A DNA stretch of 56,925 nt, taken from a virus (taxonomy: Duplodnaviria > Caudoviricetes). Below the pieces are notes generated by a model. The model was not told where the DNA came from. It saw nothing but the letters and a program-made list of their open reading frames with translations, and made no database searches. The stretch covers positions 1-56,925 of the IMG/VR virus record IMGVR_UViG_3300013137_000023; one strand, 5' to 3'. The translations under genes were made by a program, and so were the position numbers. This document shows, one piece after another, positions 2,286 to 56,351 of the stretch. The stretch's first letter is position 1; every line of letters starts with the position of its first letter.

Positions 2286-2537
2286 TTAGTCATCTTCCCC
2301 CCTCATCTCCTGGATACCCCACCGGATATACTCATCCATAGCGGAAGGGTTCTCGTTAAAATACCGTTCCATCCAGGCATATTTCCGGTTTTCGTCCTGA
2401 GTCAATTCAAACCTGGCGTCCTCACGAAACCAGGACTCATGAAGTTTGTCCACAATTCGGTCGCCAGTTGCCCTCGGCCTGACGATCATCCCGTTTCCAT
2501 GATGGGCCTTTAGCCCGTAGTCCTGTTGACGTTCCAT
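2286..2537 (-). CDS. Hypothetical phage protein
   Basis: AGGAGG SD before ATG. Confidence 0.6.
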   Translation of the reverse strand: MERQQDYGLKAHHGNGMIVRPRATGDRIVDKLHESWFREDARFELTQDENRKYAWMERYFNENPSAMDEYIRWGIQEMRGEDD

Positions 2538-2550
2538 GGTTCCTCCTTCT

Positions 2551-2604
2551 GTGTATCATGCGCTTTTTCGTGATACACGGTTTCCGCTCAATTACTTGTT
2601 ATGC
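2551..2604 (+). repeat. Truncated attC (3' half only), left boundary of the array
   Basis: CCGCTCAATTACTT-GTTATGC R' end at 2598-2604 and hairpin 2551-2578; no R'' seen. Confidence 0.55.
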
Positions 2605-2853
2605 GTCTTGCGGAAGTATCGCCTCACACTCACGCCACAGCCTCGCAGGGTCGTGGTGCCGCGTGAAGTCCAGCAACACCTTCAAGGCCTCTCGGTCCAT
2701 ACCAAGCGAGTGAACTGGGTCGTGTTGCGACAGCAGCAAAGCGCAGCATTCCCGAGTCAGGGCCAGATCAAGCCTTGCTTCTACGTTTTCGCGCTCGGCC
2801 ATCCACCGCTTCACGGTGTCGTTGTTGCAGGGACATATACCAAATTCGTTCAT
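2599..2853 (-). CDS. Cassette A hypothetical protein (inverted orientation)
   Basis: AAGGAGG SD; stop codon lies in the R' core. Confidence 0.7.
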   Translation of the reverse strand: MNEFGICPCNNDTVKRWMAERENVEARLDLALTRECCALLLSQHDPVHSLGMDREALKVLLDFTRHHDPARLWRECEAILPQDA

Positions 2854-2874
2854 GTCTTCCTCCTTTCATCACAC

Positions 2875-2933
2875 GCCTAACCTGGCGTTGCAGCGGACCC
2901 GTGTGCCACGGCCCGCCGAACTTTTCGTTAGTA
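2875..2933 (+). repeat. attC site 1
   Basis: GCCTAAC...CAGCGGAC...CCGCCGAACTTTTC-GTTAGTA imperfect palindrome. Confidence 0.85.
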
Positions 2934-3086
2934 TTAATAAATAACGGCGTAGTAAATTACATAAAACCATGAAAATATGCCGTGTAAAATAGCCCATAAA
3001 ATTGATTTATTAATGCTCCATGAAATAGTTACTGCTATCGCAGACCCTAAACCAATTCCAGAACTTGTTGCTGTTTCTTTATTCAT
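2934..3086 (-). CDS. Cassette B small membrane protein (~50 aa)
   Basis: Hydrophobic GIGLGSAIAVTISWSINKSILWAILHGIFSWFYVIYY; the ORF extends upstream to 3149 inside attC2. Confidence 0.75.
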   Translation of the reverse strand: MNKETATSSGIGLGSAIAVTISWSINKSILWAILHGIFSWFYVIYYAVIY

Positions 3087-3113
3087 AATGATGAACCTTT
3101 CTTTAATTAAAAA

Positions 3114-3169
3114 TACTAACAAGGTCAATTCAGCGGACTCGTTCCTCACCGCTGATTTTTTCGTTGGCC
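3114..3169 (+). repeat. attC site 2
   Basis: TACTAAC...TCAGCGGAC...CCGCTGA...C-GTTGGCC. Confidence 0.8.
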
Positions 3170-3360
3170 TTCACAATGTCGGGGTGGCATTCCGTGCAGT
3201 ACGCCTCACGACGAAACGGCGTGTAGCTCTGACCAGGTGTCCCGGCCCACTCCGACCACTCGTACCTCTCCCGCACCTTGTCGCACCCCGTGCATTTGCC
3301 ACGAGGAAGGCGAACAAGGCGATGGAGGACTACCTTCATTCGCTCGCTTCGCTCACTCAT
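3130..3360 (-). CDS. Cassette C Cys-rich (CxxC...CxxC) hypothetical protein
   Basis: CTGC and CTEC; ORF starts inside attC3 and ends inside attC2. Confidence 0.6.
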   Translation of the reverse strand: MSERSERMKVVLHRLVRLPRGKCTGCDKVRERYEWSEWAGTPGQSYTPFRREAYCTECHPDIVKANEKISGEERVR

Positions 3361-3387
3361 TTCGGAGCCTCAACTTTCTCGTTATGT
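3309..3387 (+). repeat. attC site 3
   Basis: GGCGAAC...TGGAGGACTAC...GGAGCCTCAACTTTCTC-GTTATGT. Confidence 0.75.
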
Positions 3388-3621
3388 GGAACTTTTGGCT
3401 AAATCACCAGCCATTATTTCTACTGTATAACCTTCTCTATTAGCAACTTGTAGAAATCCAAAATCAAACCTTGTTCCCTCAGTAAATCTATAATGGTCAG
3501 AGGCAGTTACTCGTAGTTCGTGTTCATATCCTGTTTTAGGGTCGCATTTAACCCATATTGCAATTATTTTTTTCATCTTTTCCATTTTAATCTCCCGCCA
3601 AAAGTCCACATAACAAGCCAA
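3382..3621 (-). CDS. Cassette D hypothetical protein
   Basis: ORF fills the cassette; stop codon in the R' core; true start may be MEKMKK. Confidence 0.65.
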   Translation of the reverse strand: MACYVDFWREIKMEKMKKIIAIWVKCDPKTGYEHELRVTASDHYRFTEGTRFDFGFLQVANREGYTVEIMAGDLAKSST

Positions 3622-3735
3622 TCAAACCGACAAAAAATATCGGTGGTGCTGTTAAGGGTCTTGGCTATTTTTAATTTGTAAATCATTTAATTATTTCATT
3701 CTCATTTTTTGCGGTTTATCGGCAAAGCGTTAGGC
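3608..3735 (+). repeat. attC site 4 (long, 128 bp, AT-rich loop)
   Basis: ACATAAC AAGCCAATCAAACCGACAAAAAA...TTTTTTGCGGTTTATCGGCAAAGC-GTTAGGC. Confidence 0.8.
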
Positions 3736-3944
3736 GGCACATCGCCAGATGCTCCTGCGAGTATCCCGCCAGGTGCGTACATCGCCTCAAACTCTCCGTC
3801 CCACTGCACGAAAGAGCGCGTCCCGTCGTGCATCGCCCAAAGCTTGCCGCATCGCGTACAGCCGACTTTCCGCGCTCCGTGGTTCAACACTCGCTCAACA
3901 ATGTAGCGATGGCCGAATACTGCGCAAATCAACCGTTCGAGCAT
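3702..3944 (-). CDS. Cassette E small phage protein (DUF1660-like C...GH, CxxC)
   Basis: LICAVFGHRY...CTRCG; GAGGAGG SD. Confidence 0.65.
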   Translation of the reverse strand: MLERLICAVFGHRYIVERVLNHGARKVGCTRCGKLWAMHDGTRSFVQWDGEFEAMYAPGGILAGASGDVPPNALPINRKK

Positions 3945-3959
3945 ATATCAACCCTCCTC

Positions 3960-4026
3960 GCCTAACCCGGCGTTCGAGCGGGACGCTTCGCCTATCGGCT
4001 TCGCGCCCCTCAACTTTGCGTTATGT
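3960..4026 (+). repeat. attC site 5
   Basis: GCCTAACCCGGCGTTCGAGCGGGACGC...GCGCCCCTCAACTTTGC-GTTATGT, classic attC pattern. Confidence 0.92.
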
Positions 4027-4041
4027 GTTGAAGGGAGACCG

Positions 4042-4236
4042 TCATGTCACAATTTGGATTACCTTGTTTTTTAGAAAATTTAAGGCTTTTCGCAAACCCA
4101 CAGACAGAGCCAGAAAAATACAATCTTTACAATGGTCTTCGGAGTATGTCTGAGGGCCTTGCATCTTTAGTCCTAATCGTTGACAATATTCAGACGCAGT
4201 TAGATCAGATAAATAGAAAATTGGATCAGCTTTCAT
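4042..4236 (-). CDS. Possible antisense ORF fully overlapping the cassette F gene
   Basis: AGGAGG SD 5 nt before ATG on - strand; 64 aa. Confidence 0.4.
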   Translation of the reverse strand: MKADPIFYLSDLTASEYCQRLGLKMQGPQTYSEDHCKDCIFLALSVGLRKALNFLKNKVIQIVT

Positions 4237-4238
4237 AA
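4044..4238 (+). CDS. Cassette F hypothetical coiled-coil protein (canonical cassette orientation)
   Basis: GAAGGGAG SD just after R'; heptad-like C-terminus. Confidence 0.65.
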   Translation: MSQFGLPCFLENLRLFANPQTEPEKYNLYNGLRSMSEGLASLVLIVDNIQTQLDQINRKLDQLS

Positions 4239-4262
4239 TAACCTCCTATTAAAAATTAAATC

Positions 4263-4311
4263 ACATAACAACCGGCTCGACTTGACGAGCAAGTCAGCCG
4301 GGACGTTATGC
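4263..4311 (+). repeat. attC site 6 (minimal, 49 bp)
   Basis: ACATAACAACCGGCTCGACTTGACGAGCAAGTCAGCCGGGAC-GTTATGC. Confidence 0.8.
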
Positions 4312-4612
4312 TCTTTGAATCTGGCTTGCAATGTAGGGTTGCAAGGTTGGGCAAATACCTTTCAGAGGAGGTGGTTAACTTGAAAAAGTTAATACACATT
4401 TTGAAGGGGGCGCGCTTCCGAGTTATTAATCATTTGTACCACCCTTGAACGTGTTAGGCTATCATTTTTGAGTTCAAGAGCCGCTTGATTAGACTTTGGA
4501 AGGCAGAAGGTAATAGTAATGTCTCTTTCTGCTTCGATAGTCGGGCAAAGGGAACACACATTACCGCGCCGCCCTTCTTTTCCATTCCTACATTGCAAGC
4601 CAGATTCAAAGA
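4312..4612 (+). ncRNA. Candidate structured ncRNA in cassette G (retron msr-msd-like architecture)
   Basis: Perfect 26-bp IR (4312-4337/4587-4612), two short stem-loops, then a long branched stem; GAAA loop and G.U pairs favour + strand. Confidence 0.55.
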
Positions 4613-4663
4613 TCGTTTGTGGCTAATACCCACGAAAATATTATAAAAAAATAAAAGTTGATA

Positions 4664-4726
4664 GCATAACCACCGGCTCGACCTCGACCGCCAAAAGACG
4701 GCGGCAGGTCAGCCGGAGCGTTATGC
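4664..4726 (+). repeat. attC site 7
   Basis: GCATAACCACCGGCTCGACCTCGACCGCC...GGCGGCAGGTCAGCCGGAGC-GTTATGC; related to attC6. Confidence 0.88.
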
Positions 4727-4739
4727 GTAAATATCACCA

Positions 4740-5390
4740 TCACCTATTTGCCTCAAAGAACGCTTGTGCAAATCCAGGCGGTGTAATTGCCCTGCGTTCC
4801 TGCCTTGTGTATTTGCCGTAATATTCCGGGTATATGTCCTTGCTCTTGAGCATCGAAAACTTAACCATGCCAGACGGCTTCTCGGTTGTTTTCGGAAGGG
4901 GCTTGTTGAACTTACCCCACAGCGCCGTTGTCTTCTGGTAGTTGTCTCCATATTCCCACGGCTGGAAGATCATCGCTGGTTCTTTTAGCCACTTCTTGAG
5001 CAAGCTGTTTGCCGGATTCTCTATGGCCCAAAACTTCGGCTGTGCGGTCAGTATTATCCGGCAACATGCCGCAGCCACTTCAAGCCCTGCCTCGAAATCG
5101 TGCGTGTAGTTTCCCTTGCAATGGAAATATTTGGCTATGCTGAAATTATCGCAGGGCGTGGCGGCTAAAATGCCGTACACGTTATCAGGTGGTATGTAGA
5201 GCCTGACATCATCAGTAGGCAGAGTTACTATTCTCACATCATAGCCTGCTTCGACATAGGGGCGGCTCCATGAGCCCGTGCCTCCACAAAGATCAAGAAT
5301 GATACGATGCGCATAACAAGCGCATCGAGAGGGACGCGGTATCCCGCCGTCTTCTTTTTTCATTTCTGCCTTATTCACCGCGCCCCTCAT
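4740..5390 (-). CDS. Cassette H short C5-cytosine DNA methyltransferase-like protein
   Basis: Motif I LDLCGGTG, motif IV ATPC, motif VI IENP; start codon inside attC8. Confidence 0.75.
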   Translation of the reverse strand: MRGAVNKAEMKKEDGGIPRPSRCACYAHRIILDLCGGTGSWSRPYVEAGYDVRIVTLPTDDVRLYIPPDNVYGILAATPCDNFSIAKYFHCKGNYTHDFEAGLEVAAACCRIILTAQPKFWAIENPANSLLKKWLKEPAMIFQPWEYGDNYQKTTALWGKFNKPLPKTTEKPSGMVKFSMLKSKDIYPEYYGKYTRQERRAITPPGFAQAFFEANR

Positions 5391-5404
5391 GCTTGTCGTT
5401 ATTT
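5311..5404 (+). repeat. attC site 8, right boundary of the array
   Basis: GCATAACAAGCGCATCGAGAGGGACGCGG...CCGCGCCCCTCATGCTTGTC-GTTATTT. Confidence 0.88.
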
Positions 5405-5776
5405 CCCCCTGTTCGGTTCATTAGGATCAATTGTTTGTTTATAAGACCACATAATAAAATCAAGAATTGTTTCTGATAAACTTCCCCCGGTAATATTGAT
5501 CCAGTCTGCAACTAATTCGTCCAAGCATTTATGTAATTCAATGTGCCTGATTTTATGCTCTGATTTACTCATATTCCTGTAGTCCTTTTGTGTTCCCATC
5601 AATTTCTTCCTTTCAGTATTATACATATCGAACGCTTTTGGGTTGCCGTAGTAATTCCCGCTTTCATCAAGAAACAAAAGGTTCCGTTTTCTAAATGTGC
5701 CTTTGCAATTATGAGGGCCAATACCGCCCAAGTTTCTTCCACACCATAGGCATTTATAGGGCTTGTTATTCATCAT
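5399..5776 (-). CDS. Hypothetical phage protein
   Basis: GGAGGG SD; CxxC; HIELHKCLDELVAD segment. Confidence 0.65.
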   Translation of the reverse strand: MMNNKPYKCLWCGRNLGGIGPHNCKGTFRKRNLLFLDESGNYYGNPKAFDMYNTERKKLMGTQKDYRNMSKSEHKIRHIELHKCLDELVADWINITGGSLSETILDFIMWSYKQTIDPNEPNRGK

Positions 5777-6419: not shown

Positions 6420-6536
6420 TCCCCACCTGCCTTTCCCGTTGTTCCCGGTATTCGGTTTCGCTCGATTTGAGTAGGGCCACGACTATCAATGAAATCCAAG
6501 CCCCGACAAAACAGCCAAGTATAAAGCTAAGCATAT

Positions 6537-6743
6537 TTACCTCCCCGTCAGCCTATTTTTCTTTCCGTTACAGGACCGATAGGGAAACGGCCCTCCCATT
6601 TTCTGCCATTGCTCACGAAGCGCCCGGTTTTCAAACCTCGCCGCCCATGCTCCTCTTTCGTGGTCCCTTGCCGTTTTACCTACACGCATTATTTTACTTT
6701 CATTCATCCTCTTTGCCTCCTCTCTGCCTTGCAATGACAGCAA
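6537..6743 (-). CDS. Hypothetical protein
   Basis: Co-oriented short ORF. Confidence 0.4.
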   Translation of the reverse strand: MLSLQGREEAKRMNESKIMRVGKTARDHERGAWAARFENRALREQWQKMGGPFPYRSCNGKKNRLTGR

Positions 6744-7096
6744 ACATTACTTAAACCGTCTTTGCTTTTCACATTTGGTGTAAAGTCCTTCTTGACCCTC
6801 AGACGCCCGCATACATGACAACGCTTATATCTGACGTCCTTAAGCGATATCTTACTATTTTCATAAATATCACGTTCCTTACGCCACCGACCTCCACGGA
6901 AAGCGTTCTTACGGCTCGGCTTATGGTAGGTCGTTTCCTTTACCGGGCTTTCGTTCCAGTCGGTAAACAGCTTAATGGCTTGGTACTGTCGGCATCGGTA
7001 ACAGGAGCTTTCATGGCCCATGATTTTTCCAAGCAGGTCATGTCTGGTTAGGCATGAATCAACCGATAAGCGGCAATGGAGGCGGGCGCAATTCAT
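6704..7096 (-). CDS. Cys-rich (zinc-finger-like) hypothetical protein
   Basis: CYRC, CHVC, CCHC; GGAGG SD. Confidence 0.6.
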   Translation of the reverse strand: MNCARLHCRLSVDSCLTRHDLLGKIMGHESSCYRCRQYQAIKLFTDWNESPVKETTYHKPSRKNAFRGGRWRKERDIYENSKISLKDVRYKRCHVCGRLRVKKDFTPNVKSKDGLSNVCCHCKAERRQRG

Positions 7097-7290
7097 TTCT
7101 TCAACCTCCCGTTTAAATCATAGTCACCGAGCTTTTTAATGTACTCGGCCCGGTCGTGAACAAACAGACAGATAATCCCGATACCGATTGCCGCACACAA
7201 TCCCATCTGCACCCACGCCCACCAGGGCATTGACATTAATTGGTTGAAATAGGATCGGATCATTTGGCCTCCTTTAAGAAATCCAAACAC
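7093..7290 (-). CDS. Small membrane protein
   Basis: One TM segment; AGGAGG SD before MIRSY. Confidence 0.55.
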   Translation of the reverse strand: MFGFLKGGQMIRSYFNQLMSMPWWAWVQMGLCAAIGIGIICLFVHDRAEYIKKLGDYDLNGRLKK

Positions 7291-7481
7291 TGATTGTGCC
7301 CCGGTTCTTCAAGAAACCATTCGCCAGTAGCCCTTTTCGATGGCAAGCATTTTCCATTCATCTCCAACTTTTTCCACGTTGTCTTGCCTTTATTAACTAA
7401 TGAGTTGGCCGTCACGTAACAAGAACCACACAATCCCCGACTGCGGACTTCCCTATCACAATTAGGTTTTAAACACTTCAT
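7260..7481 (-). CDS. Cys-rich hypothetical protein (MKCLKPNC...)
   Basis: C-x4-C...RGLCGSCY; SD before ATG 7481. Confidence 0.55.
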   Translation of the reverse strand: MKCLKPNCDREVRSRGLCGSCYVTANSLVNKGKTTWKKLEMNGKCLPSKRATGEWFLEEPGHNQCLDFLKEAK

Positions 7482-36837: not shown

Positions 36838-37485
36838 CTAAGCGCTGTCCCACTTAACTACACGGTTATCGGGATCACCCTGCCAGATCAGCTCAAACCC
36901 CAAAATGGCAATCCAGCCGATCCGTTTGTCACGGCCCATGTCGTTGATCTCAAACCGCAATTCCTCCGGTAAGGCAACGGCCTCCATGACCGCATCTTTG
37001 CCAAAGAAATAGGCTTCACCGGTGATGTTGGAAGTCCCAATGGCGTTGTCCATGCTGTTGGTGTCACGGACAAAACGAACATTGTAGTACTTACCGACCT
37101 CTCCATTTACTGGATATTTGGTGTACTGCCAAATCGACTCCAGGCTGTCATGGATACCCCGGAAAGCGGTTACGGTACAGATGGCCATATAATCGTCCCC
37201 GCCCTCCATCGGGGGAACAAGCATAGTACCCATCATGTAATCCACAACCGATTTCACACCGGCGGCATTCATATTGACAGAAGCCGTCAGGGTAGCGGTT
37301 CCATTTGTGGTAAAGTTACCAGAGGTGGTGGTAGAGGCCACATAGCGAACTTTAGCCGCATCCATCTGCGCCTCGACCCTCTTGTCAATAACCTTGACCT
37401 GATCGTTTTTAAGAGCCTCTACCTGAATGTTTTTGATATTCAGGGTAGCAAGGTTCTCGATCTTGCCCGTGTAACTCGTACTATT
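36838..37485 (-). CDS. Major capsid protein (N4-gp56-like family), exon 2
   Basis: NSTSYTGKIE...NGEVGKYYNVRFV...EAYFFGKDAV...DMGRDKRIGW; spliced product 306 aa. Confidence 0.85.
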   Translation of the reverse strand, partial: NSTSYTGKIENLATLNIKNIQVEALKNDQVKVIDKRVEAQMDAAKVRYVASTTTSGNFTTNGTATLTASVNMNAAGVKSVVDYMMGTMLVPPMEGGDDYMAICTVTAFRGIHDSLESIWQYTKYPVNGEVGKYYNVRFVRDTNSMDNAIGTSNITGEAYFFGKDAVMEAVALPEELRFEINDMGRDKRIGWIAILGFELIWQGDPDNRVVKWDSA

Positions 37486-37758
37486 CATTTACGTTAATGG
37501 CTAACTGTTTATGAAAGCCCTATCGGTTTCCCGATAGATCAGACCATATCTTCCGTTTCCGGTCGTGCGCTCGTGGAGCTTTACTGTCCGTTCTGGACTC
37601 CATGCTCTGGTCGTTGAACCTTCAGCCCATTCCTGGGCAGCTTGGTTGCTGATTGTCCAATCCTTGGAATTTTTATAACCATCACGCCCATCGTTACCAA
37701 TCACGTTGTGGTTTTCAAGGCTCTTAGGATTTCCCAGCAATTCACACGATATTTTTTC

Positions 37759-37787
37759 TTGACTTCCTTCTATGTTTCCGGTATAAT
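37759..37787 (+). promoter_or_regulatory. sigma70 promoter for the intron endonuclease (antisense to capsid mRNA)
   Basis: TTGACT-17 nt-TATAAT; AGGAG SD at 37806-37810. Confidence 0.8.
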
Positions 37788-37815
37788 ATACTCCATAATT
37801 AAACAAGGAGTAACC

Positions 37816-38496
37816 ATGAAGACAAGTAAAGATTATAGAGAAACCAAAGAAGCAATTTGTAAGTGTGGATGTGGACAAACCTTCTACCCTGTAAGGTTTT
37901 GGGGTAAGGCTAAATTTCCTGAATATATCAGGGGCCATCATCCGAATTGTCGCAAAAAGCAATTTGGACTTATCCCGGCATGGAATAAGGGAATGAAAAA
38001 AAGAGATCATCCTTCTCTTGAACGAATGGGATTTCAGGTCGGCCACAAATCTTTCTTTAATTGGGGGAATGTCCATGAGATAATGGATAAAAACCCATCT
38101 ATTAGAGAAAAATGGCTTAATGCCCAAAAAGGTAAAAAGCCGTGGAACAAAGGGCTTACAAAAGACCTTTATAAAAACGGGATTAAGTCTGGCCCGGAGC
38201 ATGGTAACTGGAAAGGCAATAAGCGTGGCATATACGACCTTGCTATCCTTAAGGAGTTTACAAAGCATATCCTTAAGAGGGATAATTATACCTGCCAACA
38301 GTGCGGAGATCATAATTATCTTGGCCGTGGTTCCCGTATAAAACTTAATGTCCATCACATTATTGCTATTAAAGAAGATGTTACCCAAGCTCTGAATCCC
38401 CAAAACGCCACAACCTTATGCTATGACTGTCATGTTAAAACCGAAAACTATGGAACAAAACTTATCCATAAAAGAAGAAAACAAGCGGGCAATTAG
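37816..38496 (+). CDS. HNH homing endonuclease with NUMOD-like DNA-binding repeats
   Basis: CKCGCG; PAWNKG/PWNKG; HGNWKG; RDNYTCQQCG...LNVHHI...NATTLCYDCH. Confidence 0.9.
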   Translation: MKTSKDYRETKEAICKCGCGQTFYPVRFWGKAKFPEYIRGHHPNCRKKQFGLIPAWNKGMKKRDHPSLERMGFQVGHKSFFNWGNVHEIMDKNPSIREKWLNAQKGKKPWNKGLTKDLYKNGIKSGPEHGNWKGNKRGIYDLAILKEFTKHILKRDNYTCQQCGDHNYLGRGSRIKLNVHHIIAIKEDVTQALNPQNATTLCYDCHVKTENYGTKLIHKRRKQAGN

Positions 38497-55941: not shown

Positions 55942-56351
55942 TACAGCCTCAAAAAAACATTAGTTCTGGGGCATTCATCATATTTTTTTTCGGCAGATAT
56001 TTTCCAGACCTGGGAATCGTCATGCCATACCGTGCCATTACAGACATCTTTTAAAAACTTGATTAGATTATCAAGATCTGGCTTTTTGACATGGTCCCGG
56101 TCCCGTTGCTTTTTTGGCATGGATTCGGGGATAGGCATATAAAACGTAACGTCCATCATGACACCGACCCCTTTCTCAATAGGCGGGTCCTTCCACTGCT
56201 GCTTAATTTCCCATAACACCCGGCCCTCCTCGGTTTCCTGGTCGTTATAGGTCGTGACAAACTTTCCCCGGCGAGCGAACCTGGGGCGCTTCTTGGCTAT
56301 CGGATTGCCGGGAATTGTTATGGTCTTTTCCATCACTCCTCCTTTTTGCAA
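55941..56351 (-). CDS. rusA: RusA family Holliday junction resolvase
   Basis: KKRPRF; KPDLDNLIKFLKD; DDSQV. Confidence 0.88.
   Translation of the reverse strand: MQKGGVMEKTITIPGNPIAKKRPRFARRGKFVTTYNDQETEEGRVLWEIKQQWKDPPIEKGVGVMMDVTFYMPIPESMPKKQRDRDHVKKPDLDNLIKFLKDVCNGTVWHDDSQVWKISAEKKYDECPRTNVFLRL

Follow-up and report, generated by a model that had tools for sequence, protein, structure and literature searches.

Phage-borne integron cassettes are a known kind of element, because clusters of attC sites without an integron integrase (CALINs) in phages were published in 2023 (PMC9892861). The passages of Qi et al. on this point report 17 CALINs in 10,705 phage genomes, including those of virulent phages, together with recombination by IntI1 of attC sites that virulent phages carry, and methyltransferases among the cargo. 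Cassettes are also reported to insert at genomic attG sites, with the consensus 5'-GWT-3' (Loot et al., preprint 10.1101/2022.09.11.507474). In the passages of Nivina et al. (PMC5027507), extrahelical bases lie near the L'' box of attC, and IntI cuts the folded bottom strand between A and C within AAC. This work concerns a CALIN in the IMG/VR virus record IMGVR_UViG_3300013137_000023, a linear sequence of 56,925 bp from a lake-water phage; the window, throughout, is this whole stretch at its full length. Positions 2598-5404 contain eight attC sites, all with their top strand on the + strand, and no integrase. We consider it highly probable, taking the explanation as a whole, that this is a genuine CALIN in a tailed phage, with the anatomy left by an IntI-type enzyme, which would have been a host integron integrase working in trans, and with reversed gene polarity. 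A preliminary description of the same DNA had reached the structural reading, that of integron cassettes in a phage without an integrase, and the covariance model, site anatomy and comparative data reported here support it. It overlooked the gene polarity, most genes being opposite to the attC top strand, and the kind of element is less novel than it held.

Eight attC sites on one strand

On the + strand, each site reads as xxxxAAC, a spacer of 4-6 nt, a left arm, a loop, a right arm, a second spacer of 4-6 nt and GTTxxxx, with loops of highly variable length and total lengths of 49-128 bp. Because Rfam has no attC family, a covariance model of our own, R1, was built and used instead of that of IntegronFinder. 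It aligns 13 attC sites, none of them from the window: three from the published CALIN of phage TJE1, two from L002, an array in a metagenome-assembled genome (MAG), four from G022, one from G004 and three from G007. Three of these source arrays adjoin intI, that of G022 scoring 442 bits. Searched over the whole window with filters off, R1 matched five of the eight sites exactly at the coordinates given here, and on the + strand only, at 27.0-39.1 bits (E 2.5e-4 to 1.8e-7). These are attC 1 (2875-2933; 28.2 bits, E 1.2e-4; two extra bases in the L'' arm), attC 2 (3114-3169; 27.5 bits, E 1.8e-4), attC 5 (3960-4026; 27.0 bits, E 2.5e-4), attC 6 (4263-4311; 38.2 bits on + versus 14.9 on -; of an attC family shared with L002 4737-4793) and attC 7 (4664-4726; 39.1 bits, E 1.8e-7). 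A CALIN is defined by at least two nearby attC sites recognised by a covariance model; here, five sites with E <= 2.5e-4 and one partial match lie within 2.9 kb. The best R1 match outside the array reached 12.7 bits (E 1.3), with none below E = 1, and eighteen other phage loci gave no match. In Rfam, the only match at gathering level in the window was a group I intron away from the array, and a scan of 2500-5500 by E-value returned only a chance snoRNA match.

The remaining three sites were recognised less completely. attC 4 (3608-3735, +), a 128-bp, AT-rich site with a long terminal loop, was matched by R1 in part (3608-3657; 15.9 bits, E 0.18) and had a score of 22 with a hand-made scanner. 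attC 8 (5311-5404, +), at the right junction, has three extra bases in L'' and a scanner score of 23; R1 misses it in the window and gives its counterpart in a related contig, L037, 19.6 bits. attC 3 (3309-3387, +), the weakest of the eight, was read by hand, being missed by both R1 and the scanner; its unit ends match at nine of ten positions, and loose ends at 3379 in lake-water contigs support it further. The loops of the two sites missed by R1 are long or imperfect. The scanner was initially too loose, with about ten background matches in the window, and was tightened before being superseded by R1; in its tightened form it found seven of the eight sites, two other places in the window, and two places in unrelated metagenome loci totalling 236,460 bases. 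In six of the seven sites that it scored, more extra unpaired bases lie in the left (L'') arm than in the right arm on the + strand. The array has the anatomy of attC, comprising an R'' ending in AAC, an R' starting with GTT, an L''/L' stem, extra bases in L'' and a variable loop, site 3 being weak in this respect. All eight palindromes of the preliminary description were located, in the single orientation that it gave, with the R' of site 5 corrected to 4020. Its expectation of about eight sites from an attC model, with no intI, was borne out in part: R1, our own model, recognised five in full and one in part and missed two, and no intI was found. The extrahelical bases that it proposed checking lie consistently in one arm. 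Separately, a 40-bp palindrome at 56211-56250 (CTATAAC...GTTATGG) matched R1 weakly, at 12.7 bits on one strand and 9.4 bits on the other, and is probably not an attC site.

The ends of the units carry the signature of passage through a circle that the preliminary description had claimed. The first bases of each unit are complementary to its own R'', with perfect runs of 8-10 nt in six of the eight units and a single mismatch in the other two. At positions 4-10, which exclude the invariant GTT/AAC, matches number 47 of 56 across units versus 24 of 56 within one site, and the observed order is the only one of the 40,320 possible pairings of left and R'' ends to reach 47. GC content alternates between units, from 30% to 63%, and its correlation is +0.38 with the attC on the right and -0.64 with the attC on the left, weak values given n = 8 and 7. 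The left junction (2598-2605, +) is a half site, G|TTATGCG, in which the G comes from the phage and TTATGCG is the start of unit 1, with no R'' or L boxes to its left; at the right junction, a GTT at 5398 overlaps the TAA stop codon of the open reading frame (ORF) at 5399-5776. Both features had been described correctly. Each outer junction is thus a GTT of the 5'-GWT-3' type, which would also have been the target before insertion; an empty site was found in none of the relatives checked (exonuclease relatives L011-L016 and relatives of the ORF at 5399-5776, the left-flank gene having none).

Cassettes in different neighbourhoods

The comparative data locate changes in content at the same point as the site anatomy. 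L037, a metagenome contig of 1,944 bp, is 90.5% identical to window 5594-4719, a segment comprising the end of the 125-aa ORF at the right flank, attC 8 and the methyltransferase gene of unit 8. This homology ends one base past the G|TT of attC 7 (4720/4721), after which the sequences are unrelated: beyond the break, L037 has a 107-aa ORF, a gene for an N6/N4 DNA methyltransferase (1288-1941; PF01555, E 6e-27) and, antisense to the genes, an attC of 34.3 bits, none of which has a relative in the window. Unit 5 and its attC 5 recur together in three viral records, L101, L102 and L103, at 83-89% nucleotide identity and with different neighbours; the homologous segment spans window 3727-3729 to 4023-4025, between two consecutive G|TT points (3729 and 4020). 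Across these comparisons, homology breaks and the ends of shared segments fall 0-5 nt from G|TT, as the preliminary description had anticipated for relatives of the array. The window's TerL had no match in the five records of L101-L105, in a search made with no positive control, and PF00589 had none in these records. The same boundary is visible in the DUF1660 proteins related to that of unit 5, since 14 of the 16 aligned stay in register as far as ..PN, where the asparagine corresponds to the boundary AAC, and then continue into unrelated tails.

Contigs from four lake-water runs provide a further view of these units. The phage backbone has a summed depth of 3-7, versus 31-117 for unit 4, and a copy of unit 8 that is 87% identical (a 669-bp contig, window 4724-5392) has a depth of 45-57, but of 6 in run X7. 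Overall, these two units stand at 10-fold or more the depth of the backbone. Loose ends of the contigs at 3379, 4719 and 5402 are at, or within a few bases of, cassette ends. Past the loose end at 4719 in X7, the sequence is, when reverse-complemented, a close match to L037 just beyond its break, such that the L037-type arrangement seems to be present in that run. No excision joints are listed, although these data are contigs, which drop rare forms, and are uninformative on excision.

The explanation that survives best beside that of an exchanging CALIN is that the array is real but inert, having been captured once, for example from a host array, then passively inherited while it decays, with the polarity reflecting which cassettes survived. 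This is consistent with the lack of excision joints among contigs, albeit that contigs cannot show rare forms, with the half attC at the DUF1660 gene in L105 and its lack of an adjacent attC in L104, and with the poor R1 scores of sites 3 and 8. However, relatives that are 90% identical differ in content exactly at G|TT, at least four viral records hold the same cassette among different neighbours, and five sites retain the full features of attC, making an inert array improbable. A second alternative is that these are intergenic hairpins native to the phage, serving as terminators or regulatory stem-loops and only similar to attC, and that the units are ordinary accessory genes of the phage, shuffled by homologous recombination. 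Genes for a RecT-like protein and an exonuclease do adjoin the array and could be the means, two of the cargo genes belong to families typical of phages, and the hairpins lie between genes of one operon. Yet a model built from the integron sites of other genomes matches them strand-specifically, site 6 being the clearest example, and has no other match across 54 kb. The sites as a class also lack the T-runs of intrinsic terminators, the pairing across each unit is stronger than that within a site, which would be unexpected of terminators, shared segments end close to G|TT on both sides, and neighbouring units jump in GC content. Hairpins of the phage's own are accordingly a very improbable account of the array.

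Least probable of all, a piece of a bacterial integron mis-assembled onto phage DNA, or a bacterial region wrongly called viral, might be suspected of a metagenome assembly in which cassettes at much higher depth in other contexts of the same habitat can tangle the assembly graph, but the record encodes a large terminase (phrog_675, E 4.7e-85), a portal/adaptor protein and a primase-helicase, is 100% complete by CheckV estimate and has phage genes on the same strand at both flanks of the array, while a contig of run X4 (2405-3338; not marked as a possible source of the record) spans the left junction without a single difference, evidence against a chimera, one of X7 covers the right junction (5316-5410), and L037, from another record, has the same right junction.

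Genes opposite the attC top strand

Four lines of evidence agree in placing the attC top strand on +. Firstly, the extra bases are concentrated in the left arm as read on +. Secondly, R1, which was built from top strands, matches on that strand. Thirdly, the array reads from left to right, from the half site to a whole attC. Fourthly, each attC goes with the gene at its left: attC 8 and the methyltransferase, but not attC 7, are common to L037 and the window, just as attC 5 and the DUF1660 gene, but not attC 4, are common to L101-L103 and the window. The GC correlations given above, positive for the attC on the right and negative for that on the left, point weakly the same way. The same orientation rule gives ordinary polarity in the control arrays of TJE1 (in which the annotated coding sequences and the attC sites are both on +), L002 and G022, the last beside intI; in a fourth control, G007, the rule was checked for the attC strand only. 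The ordinary polarity of cassettes, in which attC follows a promoterless gene that lies on its top strand, is not what the phage array has, as six of its eight units have a gene on - and an attC on +. On the sense strand of these units, the order is the bottom-strand form of attC, R'', a ribosome-binding site and the gene, placing attC 5' of the gene, and the genes either stop at the 5' boundary of their own cassette or read through it (..TAA|C or ..AA|C).

Homologues support the reversed strand in units 3, 5 and 8. The unit 3 gene (3130-3360, -) encodes a 76-aa CxxC...CxxC protein; it begins within attC 3, the site of its own unit, and its frame extends past the G|TT at 3163 into attC 2. Its one relative, P0122, is 70% identical over residues 1-66; the alignment ends at the asparagine encoded by the boundary AAC, and P0122 continues for 27 more residues. 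The unit 5 gene (3702-3944, -), accompanied by attC 5, belongs to the phage-protein family DUF1660 (PF07874), with 127 relatives, and reads through the G|TT at 3729 into attC 4. The unit 8 gene (4740-5390, -) encodes a DNA methyltransferase (phrog_757, E 1.3e-32, residues 28-215). The first ~27 codons of its frame run through attC 8, both in the window (5300-5390) and in L037 (200-290), and an ATG within the R'' of attC 8 is out of frame with the methyltransferase. Its 12 viral relatives, at 47-79% amino acid identity, have no R1 attC match, and in the three closest of those read (L025, L026 and L036) the methyltransferase starts 3-6 codons before the motif IIL(D/S)LC.

The ORFs of units 1, 2 and 4 fill their units, each following a Shine-Dalgarno sequence. 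That of unit 1 (2599-2853, -; 84 aa) is preceded by AAAGGAGG and has its TAA stop codon inside the boundary sequence; its protein has no match in Pfam, PHROG or PADLOC. Unit 2, which is AT-rich (30% GC), has an ORF for a small hydrophobic protein of 50 aa (2934-3086, -) with no family match, and in unit 4 (3382-3585, -; 67 aa) the TAA stop codon is the TTA of G|TTA. Searches of PADLOC and Pfam with the array's small proteins returned nothing.

Units 6 and 7 depart from this pattern. The unit 6 gene (4044-4238, +; 64 aa) has ordinary polarity, being on the attC top strand and antisense to the phage operon; a motif, PEKYNLYxGL, is conserved among its 102 relatives (E <= 0.001). An ORF of equal length on the - strand (4042-4236, 64 aa), which overlaps it almost fully, found only itself, and both are preceded by a strong Shine-Dalgarno sequence. 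Unit 7 (4306-4720) has no clear gene and no family or Rfam match; hence the earlier statement that attC sites separate single-gene units holds for most units but not clearly for this one. Unit 7 also contains a pair of 33-nt inverted repeats (4312-4344 and 4580-4612) that are 91% complementary and enclose ~235 nt, and an inner GTTAGGCTATCA at 4453 that pairs at 11 of 12 positions with the R'' of attC 7. The repeat region may represent a small insertion, or what is left of a fused cassette.

The reversed layout is not confined to the window, and recurs in six related viral or metagenome contigs, L037 and L101-L105. When L101-L105 are oriented by the DUF1660 gene, 14 of 15 R1 attC sites (E <= 1) are on the opposite strand and long ORFs fill the units on the gene strand, and in L037 both attC sites are opposite to the gene strand. 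DNA-modification genes recur among the cargo of these arrays: L104 encodes a PAPS-reductase-domain protein (6436-7407; PF01507, E 1.3e-25) in addition to the N6/N4 methyltransferase of L037. Two of these contigs differ at the DUF1660 gene itself. Upstream of it, L105 (4870-5000) has only the L''/R'' half of an attC, and in L104 (4870-5210) the gene, at 86% nucleotide identity, has no adjacent attC; these look like stages in the decay, or the origin, of a cassette.

Two routes to the present cassettes were considered. Recombination of the top strand, inverting whole cassettes, was rejected as the cause of the reversed genes, as by the logic of PMC5027507 it predicts extra bases in the arm on the G|TT side, and these were found in the other arm. 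Capture of flanking phage genes by off-site excision may be the origin of these cassettes; no leftover boundary sequence was found between R'' and the ribosome-binding sites.

Phage context, proposed mechanism and known systems

Nearly all genes between position 1 and ~47.5 kb of the record are on the - strand, and the array interrupts an early, leftward operon between the genes of two backbone proteins. Upstream in the direction of transcription is that of a 125-aa protein (5399-5776, -), with 41 distant relatives and one close one, L037, in which residues 62-125 are 100% identical; downstream is that of an 83-aa protein (2286-2537, -), with no relative in the viral contigs searched. Promoter-like sites are present on the - strand at 8995-8967 and 8199-8171. 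No match to TIGR02249 (integron integrase), PF00589 (tyrosine recombinases) or PF00239 (serine recombinases) was found in the whole record, with control genomes matching, in agreement with the earlier report that there is no tyrosine recombinase. A complete integron has intI, attI and a Pc promoter; here there is no intI, and at the left end plain phage DNA with only G|TT. No close relatives of the phage emerged from a megablast search against phages or from searches of the viral contigs with RecT and the unit 1 protein. Six relatives of the exonuclease (L011-L016, 44-73% amino acid identity) share no other gene near the array; they have no R1 match, only two weak scanner matches, both in L014, and no convincing attC. 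The record has no tRNA genes. The group I intron noted above (RF00028; 37520-37817, -) matches over the full model length at 71.1 bits versus a gathering score of 50, and lies in the structural-gene region, adjoining ORFs 36838-37488 and 37501-38403. Proteins identical to that of unit 3 are on three contigs in the protein database (the longest of 47,761 bp), and those identical to the - strand ORF of unit 6 on five; near-identical copies of this phage therefore occur in other assemblies.

The anatomy of the array fits the chemistry of IntI. The first cassette would have entered a plain GTT on the TAA stop codon of the upstream ORF (5399-5776), resembling a double-stranded attG site, and further cassettes would then have been added or exchanged at G|TT, leaving a half site at the left and a whole attC at the right. 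Given that the phage itself lacks a recombinase, it would fall to an integron integrase of the host to act in trans while infection proceeds. The array could be expressed by read-through from phage promoters, with the bottom strand being read. As to its polarity, our guess is that the orientation of the array was fixed at the first insertion, after which only genes in the direction of the operon would be expressed and kept. If replication runs with transcription, this orientation would also put the bottom strand on the lagging-strand template, which is reported to favour folding and excision in the passages of PMC13108822. The benefit of the cargo is likely to be DNA modification or anti-restriction, together with other accessory functions, as judged from predicted gene products: the array encodes a DNA methyltransferase and a DUF1660 protein, and the related arrays an N6/N4 methyltransferase and a PAPS-reductase-domain protein.

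The identity of the host is only hinted at. The sequence pattern of attC 6 and attC 7 had no match in the viral contigs and was found at two places in the genome contigs. One of these, in Phyllobacterium, is inside a coding region and was taken as a chance match; the other is in a deltaproteobacterial MAG, making a deltaproteobacterial host a weak pointer from sequence comparison. That MAG (G001) has no IntI over the cut-off, although it may be incomplete, and 13 of its 41 relatives have an IntI over the curated cut-off.

Several points weigh against the explanation favoured here, that of a genuine CALIN with reversed polarity served by a host IntI. R1 misses two of the eight sites in the window and matches a third only in part, and its 13 training sites were chosen by the author's own scanner. 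For units 1, 2 and 4, the gene strand is taken from an ORF and a ribosome-binding site only, unit 6 has ordinary polarity, and unit 7 is without a clear gene. Runs X4-X7 belong to a set of seven coded studies that share a year and a habitat; they may represent a single campaign and may not be independent. The sole link to a host is the one exact-pattern match of attC 6/7 in the deltaproteobacterial MAG.

A broader idea, which we put forward tentatively and think somewhat less than even odds would favour, is that there is a phage-adapted pool of reverse-polarity cassettes, moved between otherwise unrelated phages by the integron integrases of their hosts. Reverse polarity in such a pool would permit promoterless cargo to be read from phage operons and, if replication runs with transcription, would place the recombination-prone bottom strand on the lagging-strand template. 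Genes that accompany an attC in some records and are plain phage genes in others, as DUF1660 is (L101-L103 versus L104 and L105), and likewise the methyltransferase (the window and L037 versus L025, L026 and L036), may show the making of cassettes or their domestication. If this is true, phages draw on, or build, a cassette pool unlike that of bacterial integrons, trading accessory genes by means of a host enzyme. The locus also offers closely related versions of the same gene that differ in having a whole attC, half of one or none, which is rare material on the origin and decay of cassettes. Phage CALINs having already been published, what the present case adds to them is an array of eight sites with both outer junctions and with changes of content at G|TT; what is new is the reversed gene polarity, and its recurrence in six related contigs. 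No description of reversed cassettes in phages was found in the titles, abstracts and passages of the literature searched, a body of text that excludes the supplements of Qi et al.

The closest described systems are the phage CALINs of PMC9892861, such as that of Tetrasphaera phage TJE1, which likewise have several attC sites in the same orientation, short gene units, no intI, methyltransferase cargo and a junction beside GTT-type motifs. In TJE1 the genes are on the attC top strand, each ORF being followed by its attC, whereas six of the eight units here have genes on the bottom strand, with attC 5' of them, and the TJE1 array has three sites, according to the legend of Figure 2 of that paper, versus eight here. 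The outer G|TT junctions, which lie in plain DNA lacking any attI feature and pair a half site at one end with a whole attC at the other, would be the product expected of attC x attG recombination at a 5'-GWT-3' site (Loot et al.); that work was experimental and made use of the E. coli chromosome, whereas the present target would be an intergenic point of a phage, on a stop codon, and the array has grown to eight units. Ordinary arrays adjoining intI, such as that of G022 (contig C9) and the class 1 and Vibrio arrays in the passages of PMC5027507, have the same attC anatomy, the same crossover point and the same signature at the cassette ends. Unlike these, the phage array has no intI, attI or Pc, its expression would have to come from phage promoters reading the bottom strand, and most of its cargo is reversed.

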